Shown piece by piece: positions 15,198 to 24,251 of a stretch of 64,000 nt of DNA. The DNA lies in contig JBFXJJ010000005.1 of the NCBI GenBank assembly GCA_050175015.1, positions 1 through 64,000 on the forward strand. Direction: 5' to 3'. Numbering within the stretch: position 1 is the first letter of the stretch; every line of letters begins with the position of its first letter. Made by a program: the position numbers and the translations under genes. Under the pieces are notes generated by a model that had not been told where the DNA came from, did no database searches, and was given only the letters and a program-made list of their open reading frames with translations. This DNA comes from Alphaproteobacteria bacterium. GTDB taxonomy: Bacteria; Pseudomonadota; Alphaproteobacteria; JBFXJJ01.

Positions 15198-18100
15198 CTA
15201 AAAATTTTTTCTAAAACTTAAAATTGCAGTTGTTTCACTAGGGGCATTTTTTATATGATTAGGTTCTAAAGTATAGTTTAAGCCTAAACTTATTGATGTT
15301 GTATCCTTTGGTTTTAAGCTATAGAAAGCCCCAAAATTAATTTCTTGTCCCCGAGGGGTTAAATTAACTTTACTGTTTGAAATAGTAACTGAACCGTCAG
15401 TAGAAAGGTCGGTTGGCATTGTTAAGTTAGCTGTTCCTGAGACAACCCTGACAGGCTGATTTACATAAATTCCAAATTGATCGTGTTTTTCTGTGAAATC
15501 GTGCCCGATAAGACCAAACGTGAAATTATCAGTTCTGATATTGGACATATCTTTAACAATAGAATTATATGCTAAATTAGGTGTTGTTATAGCCGTGTTA
15601 TAACTGCTGACCAAGTTAAAATTATCGGCAACAGGTAACTTGGTATTAATTCCTGCAAACCATGTCGGGCTTGATGATGAAACATCAAAAAGCCCATCAC
15701 TTTTAGTTCCCAAGAAAGATTCTTTTTCATTTACGGTTCCTAATTGCAAAGAGATAGACGAACCGTGCTGCAAAGGAATGGAAAATTCACTTATGGCACC
15801 AATGACGCTTGAATCTCCATACATACTGCCTTTGCCTTGGAATATTCCTGATTTAAGTGCAAAAGTATCCATATTTAGGTTAAAAGAAAGAGCCTTGGCA
15901 TCTTCGGCAAGATTGATATAAGGATTAGAAAAAGCAGAATCATCAATTAAAAGTTCTTTGTTGATTGTGCTTTCAGAGAAGCCGAAATCATCAGAAGGAG
16001 AACGATTGTAAGATATTTTTAAGGTGTCACCACTCGTCGTTTTTTGAGTAAAAGCAAAATCGGCAAGCGATGTTATGCTGTCTTTTTTATCATCAGGCAA
16101 ATAAGAACCATTAGCTTGAGTATAATAATTAAATTCTAATTTGCTGTAATCGCCATACCTTACACCTTGAGAATCTTTTATGGCATCAAAATTATTCAAT
16201 GTTGCTTCTAATATGTTTCTTTTAGGTGATAAGCTAACGAATGTCCCCATATTGTAATAAAAAGGAAAATTCATATCGTCTAAAGCCATAACCGTATTTT
16301 GAGCCATACCAAACAAAAGACCATCACCAAAAGCATAACCACTATCAATAGAAGCCGATGATGCATCAAAAGAAATTGATTGGCTTTCAACGGAGGTTCC
16401 TAAGCTTAAAGAAAGTGAACCGACAGGGCTTGTGGCAGCATCTAAATCAAGCAAGCCTTGCCCATAAATTTCTTCATTAGCATAATCACCTGTTTTGTTG
16501 GCGGTATCAAAAAGCCTTTGAATAATTTGGTAGGTTTCAACTGAATGTCCAAACATATCAACTAATATTGCAAGCGCTCCAGACACGTGAGCCGTTGCCA
16601 TAGATGTGCCTGATTCATAGTCATATTGGTTGTTAGAAATTGATGAATAAATACCCGTGTCAGGCTGGTTGCCGTGTCCCCCTGGAGCCGAAATACAAAA
16701 ATCTTTAGCATCGCCGCAATAGTTGCTGTAGTTGGTGGCTTTGCCATCAGAACCAACAGCGTTAACAACAACCCAGTTTTTAATAAGATAAGAGCCGGGA
16801 TTATCCGGGTCCTCAATCCAATATTCATCAAATACAGTGTTGCCGTTAACACTGTCAACAACACTTGCGTAAAGAGGGATAGCCGCATCAACAGAAGGCT
16901 GCTCTTCCATTCCGTTTCCTGTTGGCCATACAAAAATTACTTTTTCTGCAATTCCTTCGGATAATATATCTAAATAAGGTCGATCATCAACGCCAGAACC
17001 AAGCCAGCCTGTAACAATATTCGTTGCCTCAGTTGAGCCGTATACGGCACAAGGATCATCGGTTGTAATGTTAGTACTGCTGTAAACTAAGTTACGTTCA
17101 ACACCGTTAATAGTTCTTCTTATGGTGCAATAGTTAGGATTCATAATGCCTATTCTTTGATCTACGCCGATGTCAAAGAAATGTGTCATTGGGTGTTTTA
17201 AGGCATTTTGAATCATAGTTTCGTTAATACTGCACAACTCCGTCCATACAGGGCTGTCATAGTTAGTATAATCGACACTGCTCATCCAGATATTGTTCGC
17301 ATTACATAAAACGCCAGTACTTTGGATAGCTGTGGTGAAAGCTCCTGAACGCCAAGTAGTTAATGCCGTGGTATATGCTGCGGTGTCTTCTACCGTATTG
17401 CCGTCAGCATCAGTTGTTGTGTAGTCATCAGGGTCAGGTGGCGTGGTTGTTAGATTGCTTAGGTATTGTTCTTTGGAATAAGCATAAAAGCGATCATAAG
17501 TTGGGAATATGTTAGAAGTTAAGATCATAGAATCATAAGCAACTCCCTGCATTTCATTGCCATCTTTAAGACCGGCAATAATGCCTGCAATATGAGTTGC
17601 CTCATCTTTTATTTCGTCTTTGTATTCTTCGCAGTCGTTTGTTCCTTTGTTATCAATAGCGTCATAACACATAGGAACGTTGGTAGTTTCATTGTCTACT
17701 CTAAAGTTTTCGTGTTCATAATCAACTAAACCATCAAGCAGGGCAATTCTAGCGCTGGATCCAGTGTAACCTCGAGCATAAGCAGAGCTTGCATTAATCA
17801 TATCAAGACCATACTGAGCTAGATACTCTGTGGTAACAATTCCATCACTACTCGAAGACGTTTCACTATCACCTCCGCCACCACCGACTCCTGCTGCAAC
17901 AACTCCTGCCGCCGCAACTCCGCCGATAGCCAGTGTTGTTATAACTGATGCCGGAATAACCGAAGCTGCTCCTGCTGCACCTATAGTAGTTGCGGTTGTA
18001 ACAGGTTTAACAACAGTTGGAATTACTCTTATATAGGTTGGTCGAGGATAAATATATGGGCTTGCAGCTAAAACATCTTCAAAGCCATTGTCAAGCAAAG

Positions 18101-18491
18101 AAAAAGTATTGTTATCTAAGGGGTTATTTAGATATTCAGCCTTTTCATAACCAACCTCTGTTTCCTCTGGTAAATCATTTGAAGTACTTTGGTTTGAATC
18201 GTTTAAGTGCTTGTCGTTATGACTTTTTTCAGGATAATCTGATGTCTGTTCGCTGAAAACTACGTTAATAATTTTACTGCTGGTTTCTATATCATCAATA
18301 GTAGCATTGTTGCTTAATTTTGTTGTTTTATGGTTAGTTGTATTATGGTTTTTTACAATGCTTCTAGTTTCAATATCATCAATTGCAGTATTATTATGGA
18401 AAATGGGAAAATCGTAGCCTTTGGCATTAGCTTCTAATGCCCAAAAAACTACGATAAAAGATAACAAATAGATCTTTTGCTTCATCAACAA
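15198..18491 (-). CDS. S8 subtilisin-like autotransporter-like paralogue with catalytic His replaced by Glu
   Basis: ALLDG / DEATHIAG / GTSMATA and PTGN; large insertions; C-terminal beta domain ending in Phe. Confidence 0.88.
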   Translation of the reverse strand: MLMKQKIYLLSFIVVFWALEANAKGYDFPIFHNNTAIDDIETRSIVKNHNTTNHKTTKLSNNATIDDIETSSKIINVVFSEQTSDYPEKSHNDKHLNDSNQSTSNDLPEETEVGYEKAEYLNNPLDNNTFSLLDNGFEDVLAASPYIYPRPTYIRVIPTVVKPVTTATTIGAAGAASVIPASVITTLAIGGVAAAGVVAAGVGGGGGDSETSSSSDGIVTTEYLAQYGLDMINASSAYARGYTGSSARIALLDGLVDYEHENFRVDNETTNVPMCYDAIDNKGTNDCEEYKDEIKDEATHIAGIIAGLKDGNEMQGVAYDSMILTSNIFPTYDRFYAYSKEQYLSNLTTTPPDPDDYTTTDADGNTVEDTAAYTTALTTWRSGAFTTAIQSTGVLCNANNIWMSSVDYTNYDSPVWTELCSINETMIQNALKHPMTHFFDIGVDQRIGIMNPNYCTIRRTINGVERNLVYSSTNITTDDPCAVYGSTEATNIVTGWLGSGVDDRPYLDILSEGIAEKVIFVWPTGNGMEEQPSVDAAIPLYASVVDSVNGNTVFDEYWIEDPDNPGSYLIKNWVVVNAVGSDGKATNYSNYCGDAKDFCISAPGGHGNQPDTGIYSSISNNQYDYESGTSMATAHVSGALAILVDMFGHSVETYQIIQRLFDTANKTGDYANEEIYGQGLLDLDAATSPVGSLSLSLGTSVESQSISFDASSASIDSGYAFGDGLLFGMAQNTVMALDDMNFPFYYNMGTFVSLSPKRNILEATLNNFDAIKDSQGVRYGDYSKLEFNYYTQANGSYLPDDKKDSITSLADFAFTQKTTSGDTLKISYNRSPSDDFGFSESTINKELLIDDSAFSNPYINLAEDAKALSFNLNMDTFALKSGIFQGKGSMYGDSSVIGAISEFSIPLQHGSSISLQLGTVNEKESFLGTKSDGLFDVSSSSPTWFAGINTKLPVADNFNLVSSYNTAITTPNLAYNSIVKDMSNIRTDNFTFGLIGHDFTEKHDQFGIYVNQPVRVVSGTANLTMPTDLSTDGSVTISNSKVNLTPRGQEINFGAFYSLKPKDTTSISLGLNYTLEPNHIKNAPSETTAILSFRKNF

Positions 18492-18843: not shown

Positions 18844-19734
18844 TTATTTGAGTAGGGCATAAGACATAATTTTATAAGCAAGTTTTGCCGCTAGAAAATT
18901 GCAACTGTGGAACCCATCTATGGGGGCAAGTTCATTAACATCAGCGCCAACAAAAGTACAAACTTTTGATGCTGCTTTTAGTATTTTCATTGCGTCATTC
19001 CAAAATAACCCGCCAGGTTCTGGCGTGCCTGTTGCAGGCATAAGACTGGCATCAAAGCCGTCAAGATCGAAAGTTACATAAACGTGTTTGTCTTTTAATG
19101 GTTCAATAATATCGTTGATATTCCAAGAAGAGATATCTCTTCCCCAGTGAATGTTGATACGATGTTTGTTATTTTCTAAAAAAGGAATTTCTTCGCTTGA
19201 AATGTTTCTTATGCCGCAGGAGATTAATTTCAGATGTTCAAAATCTAGGCACCTTCTAAGAGCTGCGGCGTGAGAGTAGTGTTCACCGTCATATCCATCT
19301 CTAAGATCGGCGTGAGCATCAAAATGCAGGATAACTAGATCTTGATACTTGCGGGCAAAAGGGCGGATAGCCCCAGATGTTAAAGAATGTTCTCCTCCAA
19401 AGACGACAGGAAACTTTTCGTTGTCAATAAGTTGAGAGACTATTTCATCTAATTTTTCTAAAGCTTTTGGTAAAGATTTAGGTATTTTAAATTCTTTCAG
19501 TGTTGCAACACCATATTGGCGAAAAGGTTCTAACCAAAACTCATCATCAAATAATTCTACTTCGTAAGATGCCTCTATCATCGCCTGTGGTCCTTCAGAT
19601 GTGCCTCCACCATAGGAAACACTAGCCTCAAGACCAAAAGGAACAATAACAGCTTTTGCTTTTTCAGGAGAAACCGCATCTTCTTCAGGTAATCCTAAAA
19701 AAGCATCATTTGGAAGCATATATTCAAATTTCAT
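18844..19734 (-). CDS. speB: Agmatinase-family ureohydrolase
   Basis: GGEHS, HFDAHAD, FDLDGFD and PATGTPEPGG Mn-binding motifs. Confidence 0.93.
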   Translation of the reverse strand: MKFEYMLPNDAFLGLPEEDAVSPEKAKAVIVPFGLEASVSYGGGTSEGPQAMIEASYEVELFDDEFWLEPFRQYGVATLKEFKIPKSLPKALEKLDEIVSQLIDNEKFPVVFGGEHSLTSGAIRPFARKYQDLVILHFDAHADLRDGYDGEHYSHAAALRRCLDFEHLKLISCGIRNISSEEIPFLENNKHRINIHWGRDISSWNINDIIEPLKDKHVYVTFDLDGFDASLMPATGTPEPGGLFWNDAMKILKAASKVCTFVGADVNELAPIDGFHSCNFLAAKLAYKIMSYALLK

Positions 19735-19767: not shown

Positions 19768-20810
19768 TTATTTTTTATCAAACATTTTGCTGTATTCACG
19801 AGTTTTACGATTTTTCCAATAACCGCGATGATAAGCATCACTTGCAATCAAAGGAATTACGCTGCCAGCTTCGGCATAAACCATTTGTTCGAATACGGTG
19901 TCAACTTTGCCCCAAGAACAAGCTTCTTTAAGAGTAGATGAGGAGCAAGCACCATCTCTAACATCAGCAACTGTAATTTGAATTGCGTATTTATGCATAT
20001 CAACATCTTTACCTAAAACTTCAGCGCAAACAACGGTATCTTGTACGAAGTTTTTAGGAACACCGCCGCCAATCATTAATAAACCGCTGGTGCCGCCTGC
20101 AATTTTGATGTTGGTTAATTCTCTAAAATCTCTTATAGAGTCAATCGTAACACATTTATCTGGGTTTTTATCTTGATGTAATACCAAGCCAAAGCCTGCA
20201 CTTGAATCTGTGAAAGCAGGGCAGAAAATTGGAACGTTATGTTCATATGCTAATTGAACTAAAGAATTTTTCTTTTTGGAATGTTTAGTTAAATAGCGTC
20301 CCATTTCTCTAATAAATTCTCTTGATGAATAAGGACGAGGTTCTAATTCATCAGCAATTTTACAAATAGTAGCATCGCAGTTTTGCAATTCTTCTTCATC
20401 AATATAGGTATCATAAATACGATCAATATAAAGTTCTCTTAAATCTTTATCATTAACATTTGGGCTGCCTTGATAATGTTTAAAGCCAAGAGCCTCAAAG
20501 AAATCCATATCAACAATGCTTGCCCCAGTTGAAACAATAGCATCAACCATATTATAACGAATTAAATCTGCATATAGCTGCATACAGCCGCCAGCTGATG
20601 TGGAACCTGCAAGCGTTAAAATATAGAGCAGTCTTTATCTTGCAGCATACGGTTATAAATTTCAGCTGCACGAGCAAGGTCTCTTGAGGTAAAGGACATT
20701 TTGCTCATAGAATCAATAATTGGTCTTGCATCAAAAGATGTAAAATCTATGTGTTCAATATGTTTGGTTAAAATATCTTTTTTGGTTAGGCTTTGGTTTT
20801 CGGTTTTCAT
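19768..20810 (-). pseudogene. speY: Deoxyhypusine-synthase-like SpeY, split by a 1-nt deletion (possibly an assembly error)
   Basis: ORFs 20616-20810 and 19768-20583 join as DCSIF-LTLAGSTSAGGCM if one base is added to the A4 run at 20618-20621; GGGVPKNF and SSSTLKEACSWGK motifs present. Confidence 0.85.
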
Positions 20811-20852
20811 TTTTTATTCCTTAAAAATTAAATTAATAAAGTTAGTTGGATT

Positions 20853-22025
20853 TTAAGCTGCAGTTTTGCCTGAGCAGCTTGGAATTCTGGTAAGAGAAGG
20901 GAATTTATCATCAATAATAACAGTTTCATCAGAATAGAAACCGTTGAATTTAGTTCTCATTGTGCTGCCATAAGCGCCTAGCATTTTGATTTCGATATAA
21001 TCGCCTTCTTTCATATCGGAAGGCAACATAAATGGTCCAGGCATAAAGTCAGCACTGTCACAAGTTGGACCATAAAATTTAAACGGAGCAAGTTTTTTGG
21101 TTGATACTCTATCGACTAACTCAGTGGGAAAGATAAAATCAACACCATTTCCAGCATCATAAAGAGCTCCGAAAGTTCCTTCGTTAAGATAAAGAATATT
21201 CTTTTTTCTAAGTTCAACCTTAACAATATAAGATACAGATTCGGCAACTAGCACACGACCAGGTTCACACCAAAGTTCCATCTTTTCATAACCCGGTATT
21301 TGAGTAAAAGCGGCTTTGATGGTCTCAAGATATTTAATCATATTAGGAGGATTAAGCTTAGGATAATGGCACGGAAAACCACCTCCAATATCTACAATAT
21401 CAAGCTCTACCCCAGTTTTTGCTACAATCTTACTAATTGTTTTCAGCGGATTGGAATAAGCATTAGGCTTCATACATTGAGAACCTGCGTGAAAGGAAAT
21501 GCCGAGTTTATTCGCTAACGGACGGGCTTTTTTTAAAAGCGATGCGGCATAATAAGGATACGCTCCAAATTTGCTGGATAATGGTAGAATAGATTTTTTA
21601 TTTTCAATCGCCATACGAACAATTAAATTTAGGTCGCCAGCAAAATTAGTACATTCTAAAATCTTCTGTAATTCATCATCGCAGTCAAAAGCAAAATCTC
21701 TTATGCCATATTCAAAATAAGCTTTAGTTATGGCTAAACGGCTTTTGACAGGGTGCATAAAAGACATATGAGCATTAGGGCTAATGCTGTAAATTGTTTC
21801 TATTTCACCAAGAGAAGCAACGTCAAAATGATTAAGACCATCTTGAACCATTGTTTCAATGATATATGGAGAAGGGTTAGTTTTTACCGCGAACATAGTT
21901 GTTCCCGGAAAATTCTTTTTAAACCAGCGGACTTTCCTGCTTACGGCGTTTGGAAAGTAACACGCTACAGATGAAGCCGGTCTGTTTGTCCGGACCATTT
22001 CTGCAGAGGATTTAAATCTTTGCAT
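20853..22025 (-). CDS. PLP-dependent alanine-racemase-fold (ODC-like) basic amino acid decarboxylase
   Basis: FAVKTN (PLP Lys), FHAGSQ, DIGGGF, EPGR, GPTCDS, GAY; likely start is the ATG at 22025, 9 nt after SD AGGTG. Confidence 0.92.
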   Translation of the reverse strand: MQRFKSSAEMVRTNRPASSVACYFPNAVSRKVRWFKKNFPGTTMFAVKTNPSPYIIETMVQDGLNHFDVASLGEIETIYSISPNAHMSFMHPVKSRLAITKAYFEYGIRDFAFDCDDELQKILECTNFAGDLNLIVRMAIENKKSILPLSSKFGAYPYYAASLLKKARPLANKLGISFHAGSQCMKPNAYSNPLKTISKIVAKTGVELDIVDIGGGFPCHYPKLNPPNMIKYLETIKAAFTQIPGYEKMELWCEPGRVLVAESVSYIVKVELRKKNILYLNEGTFGALYDAGNGVDFIFPTELVDRVSTKKLAPFKFYGPTCDSADFMPGPFMLPSDMKEGDYIEIKMLGAYGSTMRTKFNGFYSDETVIIDDKFPSLTRIPSCSGKTAA

Positions 22026-22033
22026 TTCATAAA

Positions 22034-22100
22034 TCACCTATACAGTAGTTGAACCAAATATTCAGCCCTGGCCACGGTCCGGCTGTACCGAATAGGGAGT
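22034..22100 (-). promoter_or_regulatory. Candidate structured 5' leader (riboswitch/attenuator-like) of the polyamine operon
   Basis: GC-rich island with mutually exclusive pairings, one of which covers the SD; upstream TTTACT-16-TAATAT. Confidence 0.5.
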
Positions 22101-22261
22101 AGATATTAGCTGCAAAAAATAAAAAGTAAATAAGAATTTATTATTTAAAATAAAAAATTTAATTTTGCTTTTTTATAATATGCTTGCTTAAGGTGTTTTC
22201 TCTTTGCTATGCTACAAGTTCTTAAAATTTATCAGTCATTAATAAAATAAAGGAATAAAAA

Positions 22262-23188
22262 ATGAGAGTAGTAATTGCTCTTGGCGGTAACGCCCTTATT
22301 AGACGTGGGGAAAAAGCTGAAGCTTCAACCCAGATGAAAAATATTGATATTGCTTGTAAATCAATCTCTGAAATTGCTAAAGAGCACCAAGTGGTTTTAA
22401 CACACGGAAACGGTCCTCAAGTTGGGCTTTTAGCTTTACAGGCAGATTCTTATAAAGACGTAACACCTTATCCTCTAGATGTTCTTGGCGCTGAAACCCA
22501 AGGTATGATTGGTTATATGCTTGATCAAAGTTTAGAAAATCTTATGCCAAATCAAAAAATTGCAATTATTCTTACGCAGATAGAAGTTGACCCTAATGAC
22601 AACGCATTCAAAAATCCAACAAAACCTATCGGTCCAGTCTATGATCAAGCAACAGCAGAAAAACTAGCAGCAGATAGAGGCTGGACTATTGCTCCTGATG
22701 GTAATTATTTTAGAAGAGTTGTTCCATCACCAGAGCCTATGGAAATTGTTGAAAAGAGATCTATTAATCTCTTAGTTGAAAATGATGTTTTGGTTGTTTG
22801 CAACGGCGGTGGCGGTATTCCCGTTATGAAACAAAATGATGGCAAATTAAAAGGCATTGAAGCCGTTATTGATAAAGATCGTGCTGCAGCATTACTTGCT
22901 AAAGAAGTTAAAGCTGATGCTCTTGTTATTTTAACAGATGCTGAAGCTGTTGCGACCGATTGGGGTAAACCTGATTCTAAAAACATTAAAACCGCATCTC
23001 CAGAAGATATGAAGCAATGGAAATTCCCTGCTGGTTCAATGGGACCTAAAGTTGATGCTTGCTGTGCTTATGCTAAAGCTAATCCAAAAGGAATTGCCTG
23101 CATAGGAAGGTTAGAAGATGCGCTTGATATTTTAGCAGGTAAAAAAGGCACGATTATTAAATCTGATGCTAAACTTACCTATTACTAA
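22262..23188 (+). CDS. arcC: Carbamate kinase
   Basis: ALGGNAL, THGNGPQVG, PTKPIGP, RRVVPSP, EAVIDKD, GSMGPK. Confidence 0.96.
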   Translation: MRVVIALGGNALIRRGEKAEASTQMKNIDIACKSISEIAKEHQVVLTHGNGPQVGLLALQADSYKDVTPYPLDVLGAETQGMIGYMLDQSLENLMPNQKIAIILTQIEVDPNDNAFKNPTKPIGPVYDQATAEKLAADRGWTIAPDGNYFRRVVPSPEPMEIVEKRSINLLVENDVLVVCNGGGGIPVMKQNDGKLKGIEAVIDKDRAAALLAKEVKADALVILTDAEAVATDWGKPDSKNIKTASPEDMKQWKFPAGSMGPKVDACCAYAKANPKGIACIGRLEDALDILAGKKGTIIKSDAKLTYY

Positions 23189-23306: not shown

Positions 23307-24251
23307 ATGTTTCATATTTTGTTGGTAGCTCTTTTTTTTAGTTTCTTATCTATTTCATCATTTGCAGGAGATGCCTCTATTACAATGAAAGAAGCGTTTC
23401 CAAGTGAAAAAACAACGGAAAACCTCCAAGATAATGATGATAATTTACGGGCTATAATTGATAAAACTTTTTTAGACGCAGAACAGGGAGATGTAAAATC
23501 TCAGTTTGCTTTAGGCGCACTTTACGCCAATGGAAAAGGAGTAGAGCAAGATTTCAAAAAAGCGCTTTATTGGTATAGAAAGGCAGCAGAGCAGGGATAT
23601 GCAAGAGCACAGTTTATAATAGGTCTTAGCTATTATCGCGGACAAGGGGAGAAACAGGATTATCAGAAAGCGATAAAATGGTTTAAATTATCAGCCGAAA
23701 ATGGGGACACTTTAGCTCAATATAAGCTGGGCGATATGTATTATAGCGGTGATGGTGTAACTTTAAATTATCAGGAAGCATTTAGGTGGTTTAGTGTGGC
23801 AGCTAAAGCTGGGACTAGTGCCGCCCAAATAGACTTGGGATATATGTATAGCAATGGTTTAGGTGTTACACAAAATTATAATGAGGCTCTAAAATGGTTT
23901 AAATTAGCCGCAGAACAGGGAAATGCTGCGGGATATTTTAATCTTGGCTTGGCCTACGAAAGAGGAAAAGGGGTATCTAAGGATATTTCAAAAGCAATAT
24001 CATATTATGAAACTGCGGCTCAAAACGGTTATGCCGCAGCTTCATATAACTTAGGCGCTCTTTACGGTGTTGGAGAACTAGTTAAACAAGATAATATCAA
24101 TGCTTACCTATGGTTTTCTGTTGCTCTATATCAAGGAATGCCATCTTGCCAGAAGCAAATTATTAGCCTTGAAAGCGTTATGAATAAAACTCAAATCAAA
24201 AAAGCTAAAGAGCTGTTTGAAGATTGGAAAAAACATAATATTTCTGAATAA
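23307..24251 (+). CDS. Exported Sel1-like repeat protein
   Basis: Signal peptide; about six 36-aa AQ..LG..Y..G.GV..D...A..W...AA..G repeats. Confidence 0.92.
   Translation: MFHILLVALFFSFLSISSFAGDASITMKEAFPSEKTTENLQDNDDNLRAIIDKTFLDAEQGDVKSQFALGALYANGKGVEQDFKKALYWYRKAAEQGYARAQFIIGLSYYRGQGEKQDYQKAIKWFKLSAENGDTLAQYKLGDMYYSGDGVTLNYQEAFRWFSVAAKAGTSAAQIDLGYMYSNGLGVTQNYNEALKWFKLAAEQGNAAGYFNLGLAYERGKGVSKDISKAISYYETAAQNGYAAASYNLGALYGVGELVKQDNINAYLWFSVALYQGMPSCQKQIISLESVMNKTQIKKAKELFEDWKKHNISE

Follow-up and report, generated by a model that had tools for sequence, protein, structure and literature searches.

Paired start codons in the 5' leader of an alphaproteobacterial homospermidine operon and their likeness to the odc1 motif

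Introduction

The first 64,000 nucleotides of contig JBFXJJ010000005.1 (assembly GCA_050175015.1; this whole stretch is referred to as the window) carry a polyamine operon on the minus strand, preceded by a short GC-rich leader inside the 224-nt divergent intergenic region 22038-22261. The locus raises the question of whether this leader controls the operon and in what manner. The original prediction, made from the letters of the DNA, regarded the leader as an undescribed translational switch responding to polyamines, agmatine or arginine, in which one fold (Fold A) leaves the Shine-Dalgarno sequence (SD) free and another (Fold B) buries it. The explanation favored here, to which we give about an even chance, is that positions 22026-22100 (-) are the 5' leader and translation-initiation region of a homospermidine operon under a divergent, reduced form of odc1-type translational control.

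Results

Paired start codons and the upstream box

The main frame of the decarboxylase at the head of the operon opens at AUG 22025, and the orthologues align from residue 1. A second AUG at 22030, unmentioned in the original prediction, precedes the main AUG by 5 nt, leaving two nucleotides between the codons, and opens a 21-codon out-of-frame open reading frame (ORF) that overlaps the main ORF (Table 1). With the position that corresponds to the final G of GGAGG as reference, the spacing is 6 nt to the upstream AUG and 11 nt to the main AUG; the usual optimum between SD and start is 5 to 9 nt. Most bases of the SD have a predicted pairing probability of 0.64-0.96.

The comparison covered 83 orthologous loci from alphaproteobacterial records (40-52% identity), whose start regions were dereplicated to 68, or 69 with the window. 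ATG or GTG was found at position -5 in 38 of these 69 leaders, representing 6 of 16 leader groups, and at any other offset from -40 to -1 in at most 5 of the 69. In the genome of the window, 37 of 1433 candidate starts carry ATG or GTG at -5. The overlapping ORF is 11-31 codons long among the relatives with ATG or GTG at this position. UGA at -4 was rejected as the conserved feature: leader L086 and the GUGCG variants of family f197 keep NUG and lose UGA, indicating that the start codon and not the stop is conserved.

The GGUUCAAC box lies 30 nt before the main start, and the same 8-mer occurs at the same offset in the Caulobacteraceae-type leaders of about 80 nt (group A), which also have the box-to-SD distance of the window. 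The box and the -5 start occur together at 2 of the 1433 candidate starts of the genome. At the other of these two, a phage-like gene start outside the window (C5:98501), GGTTCAAC lies near -30 and ATG at -5, inside an upstream coding sequence. A long upstream ORF (uORF) through the box was also considered and was rejected, the frame lacking a start codon in group A.

Likeness to known leaders

The odc1 motif (uORF-25-1; Brewer et al. 2021, RNA Biol 18:2417; PMC8632094, available in part) has 272 alphaproteobacterial representatives upstream of a gene annotated as ornithine decarboxylase (ODC). It consists of a long hairpin with the ribosome-binding site (RBS) in its right shoulder and a pseudoknot that joins the P1 loop to the 5' end; the main start is UUG, a second UUG always lies two nucleotides upstream, and the uORF peptide of 11 residues is conserved (PMC8632094). 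Reporter assays in E. coli showed initiation at both codons, with about threefold more at the upstream one, and loss of main-frame expression on mutation near the pseudoknot; no ligand is reported in the available part of the paper (PMC8632094). The RBS of the published construct, GGAGG-UCCC-UUG-AG-UUG-CAC-AAG-CAU-CAU (PMC8632094, supplement, available in part), resembles the Caulobacterales sequence GGGGG-UUAC-GUG-AA-UUG-CAC-ACG-UAC-CAU, and the two are homologous by eye.

The window leader is likewise alphaproteobacterial and directly upstream of an ODC-annotated decarboxylase of the alanine racemase (AR) fold. It has two start codons in different frames, exactly two nucleotides apart, behind one RBS, and in both cases the RBS is predicted to lie within a helix. 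The short overlapping ORF of odc1 was translated in the published reporter. A start pair two nucleotides apart before this gene family is the hallmark of odc1 (PMC8632094, available in part), and the element is accordingly not wholly undescribed. On this hallmark, rather than on a covariance-model score, the window leader is probably a divergent leader of the odc1 type. A search for odc1 representatives with a 20-nt degenerate motif over 150 genomes gave unrelated sites only.

The leader matched no known class, speF, guanidine and S-adenosylmethionine included, in line with the original prediction, which had recognised none of these three in it. A scan against Rfam 15, the check named first there, gave 0 matches at the gathering score in the 64-kb window, and only chance matches, all with E of at least 0.19, were obtained at E<=10 for 21900-22400 (501 nt). 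The speF element (RF00518; Corbino et al. 2005; PMC1273637, available in part) shares with the window its position ahead of an AR-fold decarboxylase (COG0019) in alphaproteobacteria, conservation that begins near the transcription start, and a CCGG-type hairpin tolerating insertions, and it differs in its much greater length of about 400 nt. The speF RNA bound none of ornithine, lysine, diaminopimelate, putrescine, cadaverine and spermidine (PMC1273637). RF00518 had no match in the window (at the gathering score or at E<=10), in its genome or in 29 related loci; as a positive control, it matched genomes G037 and G039 upstream of a paralogue 32-33% identical to the window enzyme. In these two genomes (L176 and L177) the speF element starts with a UCCGG...CCGG hairpin similar to the 5' hairpin of the relatives' leaders, and the speF and dual-start leader families may share ancestry.

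In Gammaproteobacteria, speFL encodes an ornithine-sensing arrest peptide in an upstream ORF that acts through ribosome stalling and Rho. As proposed here for the window, expression of a polyamine decarboxylase gene is there set by a short ORF in front of it. The speFL ORF lies upstream, whereas the short ORF of the window overlaps the main start out of frame and has no known arrest motif.

Predicted pairing of the leader with the coding sequence

When the folded transcript was extended into the gene, a 9-bp helix was predicted between the leader and codons 10-12 (Met10-Val11-Arg12). The fold with this helix has a predicted energy of -27.6 kcal/mol, against -19.6 kcal/mol when the 5' hairpin is enforced; in the latter case the GGUUCAAC box is predicted to pair with the same codons. 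A contiguous helix of equal strength was found in 38 of 5000 synonymous recodings (p ~0.008) and in 10 of 600 real coding pieces (p ~0.017). This test was used instead of RNAduplex energies between the leader and recoded coding sequence, which were uninformative (733 of 2000 recodings equal). The codons of the helix are rare in the genome, where GUC accounts for 10.3% of the codons for Val and CGG for 2.9% of those for Arg, and GGUCCG occupies codons 11-12 both in the window and in the Caulobacterales relatives. By minimum free energy (MFE), the region from -61 to +41 ranks 21st of 1432 candidate start regions.

Leaders of the orthologous operons

The Caulobacteraceae-type leaders have the form CCGGCG-GGAC..GUCC-..GCUAA-CGCCGG-CCUGGGUUCAAC-N8-GGGGG-N4-GUG-AA-UUG. 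Two models, R1 and R2, were built from the leaders of relatives, R1 from 13 of the Caulobacteraceae type. R1 was single copy in 13 of 13 genomes of family f71 (12 of 12 without the unpublished genome G436); in the same order it was found in 3 of 12 genomes of family f197, in 1 of 12 of family f210 and in none of 35 genomes of three other families. One strong match was obtained in a sample of 150 genomes of the class; three weak matches in this sample lay at unrelated genes and were discarded.

Minimal leaders of about 57 nt occur in 13 of 37 genomes of family f197. Their 5' hairpin, CCGGC-GGAGGYGACGAU-GCCGG, has a 12-nt loop. Leader L175 has a 5' hairpin of unrelated sequence, indicating that the structure is kept and not the sequence. 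In 10 of the 13 minimal leaders (among L162-L173) the hairpin loop reads GGAGG-N5-AUG, a perfect SD with a start codon, and an ORF opened there would span the box together with the main SD and start codon.

The Hyphomonadaceae leaders are longer, about 200-290 nt, with two GGACC..GUCC-N-ACUAACGCC modules and long-range complementarities. Several of them (L047:2735-2982, L038:2760-2982, L053:1236-1447, L092:2685-2970 and others) have a GAAA-capped CUG/CAG helix, the elements CCCAGGCC...GGCCUGGG and, at the 5' end, complementarity to the region of the start codon; they have no Rfam match and look like large structured RNAs. No Rfam family matched any of the 29 related loci at the gathering score, nor L047 at E<=10. 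The AT-rich leaders of SAR11-like relatives keep the promoter, a GUUUAAC box, GGGG and AUG-AG-AUG and have no GC-rich structure.

The window shares with the Caulobacterales and Hyphomonadaceae leaders the orthologous operon, a GGUUCAAC-type box at -30, the SD at about -14 and NUG at -5. It also shares a 5' hairpin that closely follows the predicted start site and precedes the box, GGUCCG at codons 11-12 and the predicted leader-coding helix. It differs in that the module CCGGCG...GGACC..GUCC..CUAACGCCGG is missing, with neither the P1 pairing CCGGCG/CGCCGG nor CTAACGC found in its leader; its hairpin sequence is unrelated to theirs, and its promoter matches imperfectly.

With the leaders extended into the gene, an RNAalifold consensus (12 minimal, 16 Caulobacteraceae-type) predicted pairing of the box with codons 8-12 (GGAUUGGGUU with GGACCUGGUCC) and of the SD context CAGGGG with CCCCUG at codons 7-8. 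The P1 3' strand and GCUGCUAA of the longer forms are also predicted to pair with codons 12-15, in which case P1 would compete with the helix closing the RBS. None of the minimal and Caulobacteraceae-type leaders varies at the synonymous sites of the coding element CCCCUGGACCUGGUCCG. Covariation support for these pairings is thin, with double changes at 4 of 29 and 2 of 28 pairs and most pairs never varying. A small hairpin around the start codon has compensatory changes by eye (ACGUG/CACGU, UCGUG/CACGA and CGUGA/UCACG). A helix between a 5' anti-SD and the SD in the minimal variants was rejected: pairing holds in 47 of 48 cells and includes one compensatory change, but 40 of 500 shuffles and a +1 slide did equally well.

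GC-rich segment, proposed folds and promoter candidates

The sequence quoted in the original prediction is present on the minus strand, and its contrast with AT-rich flanks was confirmed: the GC content is 0.50 at 22050-22109 and 0.12-0.15 directly upstream. Of the 950 crude intergenic regions of the genome, that of the leader has a tied rank of 13-22 by its best 40-nt segment (GC 0.65). The other 21 regions with GC of at least 0.65 comprise 17 with tRNA or tmRNA, one with 16S rRNA and three without an Rfam match. These three (C15:9802-10177, C1:114531-115407 and C11:71658-71889; a 40-nt segment of at least 65% GC, no tRNA, tmRNA or Rfam match) are candidates for structured RNAs. The idea of a repeat element was not borne out, the leader being single copy in its genome.

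The segments that would pair in Fold A and Fold B are all present, but the stability of the folds is no better than that of shuffled sequences. The 86-nt transcript 22020-22105 (-) has an MFE of -17.9 kcal/mol (z +0.42; 134 of 200 shuffles as good), the 75-nt transcript -16.7 kcal/mol (z 0.00) and the 64-nt transcript -11.0 kcal/mol (z +0.76). Fold B is the MFE fold and resembles the published P1 of odc1 in topology, being a long large-loop hairpin that holds the RBS in its right shoulder, but it has a z score near 0, and its 5' arm may belong to the promoter. Of the proposed translational switch, translational control is plausible, the start region being highly structured by genome-wide comparison, and the two folds are what the shuffles do not support. 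The GUG uORF at 22075-22034 (MARAEYLVQLLYR) exists as described, with its stop within AGGUGA and no SD of its own, and has no conserved counterpart in the leaders of relatives inspected.

For the promoter, the hexamers and spacer of TTTACT-16-TAATAT (option a, that of the original prediction) are present, but a promoter scan of 21900-22400 gave 0 sites; the two hexamers agree with the consensus at 8 of 12 positions, which is under the scan threshold. With option a, transcription would start at about 22097, CCCUAUU would lie within the RNA and Fold B would be close to the odc1 P1 topology. Option b, TTTTGC-N16-CTATTC, is an imperfect match to the CTTTACA-N16/17-CTAT(T/A) of the relatives and gives a leader of 58 nt, compared with 56-59 nt in the minimal variants. 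In the Caulobacterales relatives CCCUAUU is the -10 promoter box, 17 nt past CTTTAC, which speaks against its assignment as an arm of Fold B. The promoter-like sequence of the relatives lies about 60-280 nt before the decarboxylase start and is kept across otherwise dissimilar leaders, from SAR11-like to Caulobacterales.

The operon and its source

Pfam and NCBIfam assignments agree with the original prediction that the leader belongs to a polyamine operon, with genes for a decarboxylase, SpeY and an agmatinase-family protein. The second gene encodes a deoxyhypusine-synthase homologue identified as SpeY by NCBIfam. The operon is that of the agmatine-dependent homospermidine pathway (decarboxylase, SpeY and SpeB-like ureohydrolase), and the ODC-fold decarboxylase is probably an arginine decarboxylase by predicted activity. 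According to the part available of a paper of 2026 (PMC13625781), clusters of such genes produce homospermidine from agmatine, which is supplied by an ODC-fold enzyme turned arginine decarboxylase. SpeY joins two agmatines into a bis-guanidino intermediate en route to homospermidine (PMC13625781; PMC10981699, available in part), and the SpeB-like ureohydrolase completes it (PMC13625781). The word riboswitch is absent from PMC13625781.

The speY gene is split into two ORFs of 64 and 271 amino acids, the frame shifting within 20583-20616 (-) at a run of four T near 20615. The orthologues have no such break, and identity to the SpeY of locus L083 is 75% and 69% on either side of it. Either a genuine frameshift or pseudogene or a homopolymer error in the assembled sequence could explain the break.

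The source assembly is alphaproteobacterial (2.53 Mb, 35% GC). Among the genomes compared, none was related more closely than at the class level. Window DNA was detected exclusively in metagenome runs from landfill, among which there was no RNA run, and in the contigs of four landfill runs 21992-22078 was uncovered. Run X1 had short contigs about 85% identical to the window at 20708-21088 and 22249-22564, with the leader uncovered, which suggests a related organism in the same landfill sample. A 1097-amino-acid subtilase-family protein is encoded near the operon at 15198-18491 (-), and a Sel1-repeat protein with five repeats at 23307-24251 (+).

Table 1. Features of the leader, the operon and the divergent gene in the window
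Feature	Position	Strand	Basis or remark
TTTACT, -35 candidate (option a)	22130-22125	-	sequence
TAATAT, -10 candidate (option a)	22108-22103	-	16-nt spacer after TTTACT
TTTTGCA, -35 candidate of family-type promoter (option b)	22111..22117	-	relatives' CTTTACA
CCCTATTC, -10 box (option b) or 5' arm of Fold B	22090..22097	-	CCCTATTT is the -10 box in group A
GC-rich hairpin CAGCC-GGACCGUGGCCAG-GGCUG, core of Fold A	22063..22085	-	-7.8 kcal/mol alone, z -0.43
CCGGACCGU, leader strand of predicted 9-bp helix	22074..22082	-	pairs with codons 10-12
GUG uORF, 13 codons	22034..22075	-	sequence; unconserved
GGUUCAAC box	22048..22055	-	same 8-mer and offset in group A
Extended Shine-Dalgarno AGGUGAU	22033..22039	-	complementary to own 16S 3' end ...GGAUCACCUCCUUUC
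Out-of-frame AUG (22030-22028) and 21-codon ORF MKCKDLNPLQKWSGQTDRLHL	21965..22030	-	overlaps main ORF
AUGGUCCGG, coding strand of predicted helix	21990..21998	-	pairs with CCGGACCGU
ODC-fold pyridoxal phosphate decarboxylase	20853..22025	-	Pfam PF02784 and PF00278; main AUG 22025-22023
speY, 1,9-bis(guanidino)-5-aza-nonane synthase family	19768..20810	-	NF002699, 490.9 bits for larger piece
Agmatinase-family ureohydrolase (speB-like), arginase-family protein	18844..19734	-	TIGR01230, 204.1 bits
Carbamate kinase	22262-23188	+	divergent from polyamine operon

Discussion

Under the favored explanation, the single strong SD would serve both start codons: initiation at AUG 22030 would yield the 21-codon out-of-frame product and initiation at AUG 22025 the enzyme, so that ribosomes taking the upstream AUG would be lost to the productive frame. 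The GC-rich leader may form either the local 5' hairpin (CAGCC/GGCUG) or the 9-bp pairing with codons 10-12. In the second state the SD region is predicted to pair locally with codons 4-8, which would enclose the SD and both starts. The balance of frames or folds would set the output of the operon, and a signal from the polyamine pathway may shift this balance. This explanation draws on the sequence features of the leader, their conservation in relatives and predicted structures, together with the one published relative in which both starts are used.

Several results weigh against it. Homology of the window leader to the leaders of relatives is statistically unsupported. Searches by nhmmer with group A profiles and with a profile of the RBS from 31 leaders did not single it out, with E=12 in the window and the leader outside the top 15 or top 12 genome-wide. 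Of the R1 matches in the 64-kb window the leader scored best, with 11 bits and E=0.27 and with alignment confined to the part from the box to the start; R1 also matched an unrelated gene with a similar RBS layout, and R2 gave no match to the leader at E<=10. By Smith-Waterman comparison, the GC-rich part was no closer to the relatives' modules than 188 of 500 shuffles. A loose pattern search of 400 genomes was abandoned, its control matches outnumbering the real ones. The start pair is AUG/AUG in the window and UUG/UUG in odc1 (GUG/UUG or AUG/AUG in the relatives), and the overlapping ORF has 21 codons against the fixed, conserved 11-codon peptide of odc1. The structure statistics are modest: the extended fold has a z score of -1.55 with 13 of 200 shuffles as good, the start region drops to rank 59 of 1432 after GC correction, and every helix in the window was identified post hoc. 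The leader-coding helix was not found in the SAR11-like relatives, the transcription start is left between options a and b, and the box with -5 ATG at the phage-like gene is a chance co-occurrence. Lastly, the frameshift in speY may point to a decaying operon or to an assembly error.

Part of this evidence would also fit an ordinary, unregulated leader in which the GC-rich segment, the -5 AUG and the helix arose by chance or as side effects of promoter and coding sequence. We regard such a leader as less probable, though a serious alternative. The lack of a significant profile search, folding z scores near zero, the post hoc choice of helices, look-alikes such as the phage-like gene and the unrelated R1 match, and the 37 of 1433 starts with ATG or GTG at -5 all speak for it. 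Against it stand the positional peak of NUG at -5 across six leader groups and a box identical to that of group A in sequence and offset. The rare codons exactly at the position of the helix, a start region in the top 1.5% for predicted structure and a GC-rich segment that keeps company with structured RNAs also argue against it.

A metabolite-binding riboswitch, in which Fold A with its free SD and Fold B with its buried SD would alternate upon binding of agmatine, arginine, homospermidine or a guanidino compound, appears improbable for this copy. The GC-rich segment is indeed an outlier, most comparable intergenic regions hold structured RNAs, Fold B is the MFE fold with a topology like the odc1 P1 (PMC8632094, available in part), and the Caulobacterales and Hyphomonadaceae relatives have larger conserved modules whose P1 (CCGGCG/CGCCGG) would compete with the leader-coding helix. 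The folds, however, are no better than shuffles, CCCUAUU may be the -10 promoter box, and the window lacks the conserved CUAACGCC module. Unlike a conserved aptamer, the 5' hairpin varies in sequence, and in the minimal variants there is only a 12-nt loop. The available texts give no ligand for the neighboring speF motif (PMC1273637) and report none for odc1.

Action of the GC-rich segment as DNA, either as a promoter element or as a transcription-factor operator between the polyamine operon and the divergent carbamate kinase gene, is likewise improbable: the segment contains the palindrome CCCTGGCCA/TGGCCACGG, lies in a divergent intergenic region and is accompanied by the partial palindrome GTTCAAC, and the CTTTACA-N16/17-CTAT promoter of the relatives is unusually conserved, but the sequence of the segment is unconserved, its hairpin potential is kept with another sequence in L175, which fits RNA better, the divergent neighbor varies among relatives and no regulator gene is adjacent within the window.

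Beyond odc1-type control of this single operon, the window leader, odc1 and the larger Caulobacterales and Hyphomonadaceae leaders might form one family of sensors for the agmatine/SpeY pathway that choose between two adjacent starts, although we think this unlikely. The ligand of such sensors would be agmatine, N1,N9-bis(guanidino)homospermidine or homospermidine, unless they respond to polyamine charge instead. The larger leaders have single or tandem GGACC..GUCC-N-ACUAACGCC modules with P1 predicted to compete with the leader-coding helix, and the window would be a stripped-down form in which only the hairpin, the box, the dual start and the coding-region helix are left.

The leader type is far more varied than the published motif, ranging from the 57-nt minimal form through the form of about 80 nt with the CUAACGCC module to the tandem form of about 240 nt and the AT-rich one, and the start pair with its two-nucleotide spacing is the core common to these forms. 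Control by choice between adjacent starts is rare in bacteria. The speF (2005) and odc1 (2021) elements are two orphan alphaproteobacterial leaders ahead of ODC-fold decarboxylases. Since the decarboxylase beside speY makes agmatine, compounds of the agmatine pathway are ligand candidates, and they are not listed as tested in the available parts of PMC1273637 and PMC8632094. The position of the leaders on the agmatine/SpeY operon makes agmatine, the bis-guanidino intermediate and homospermidine the candidate signals. The main interest of the locus lies in this link of two orphan leader families to the newly defined agmatine/SpeY pathway, more than in the individual copy described here.

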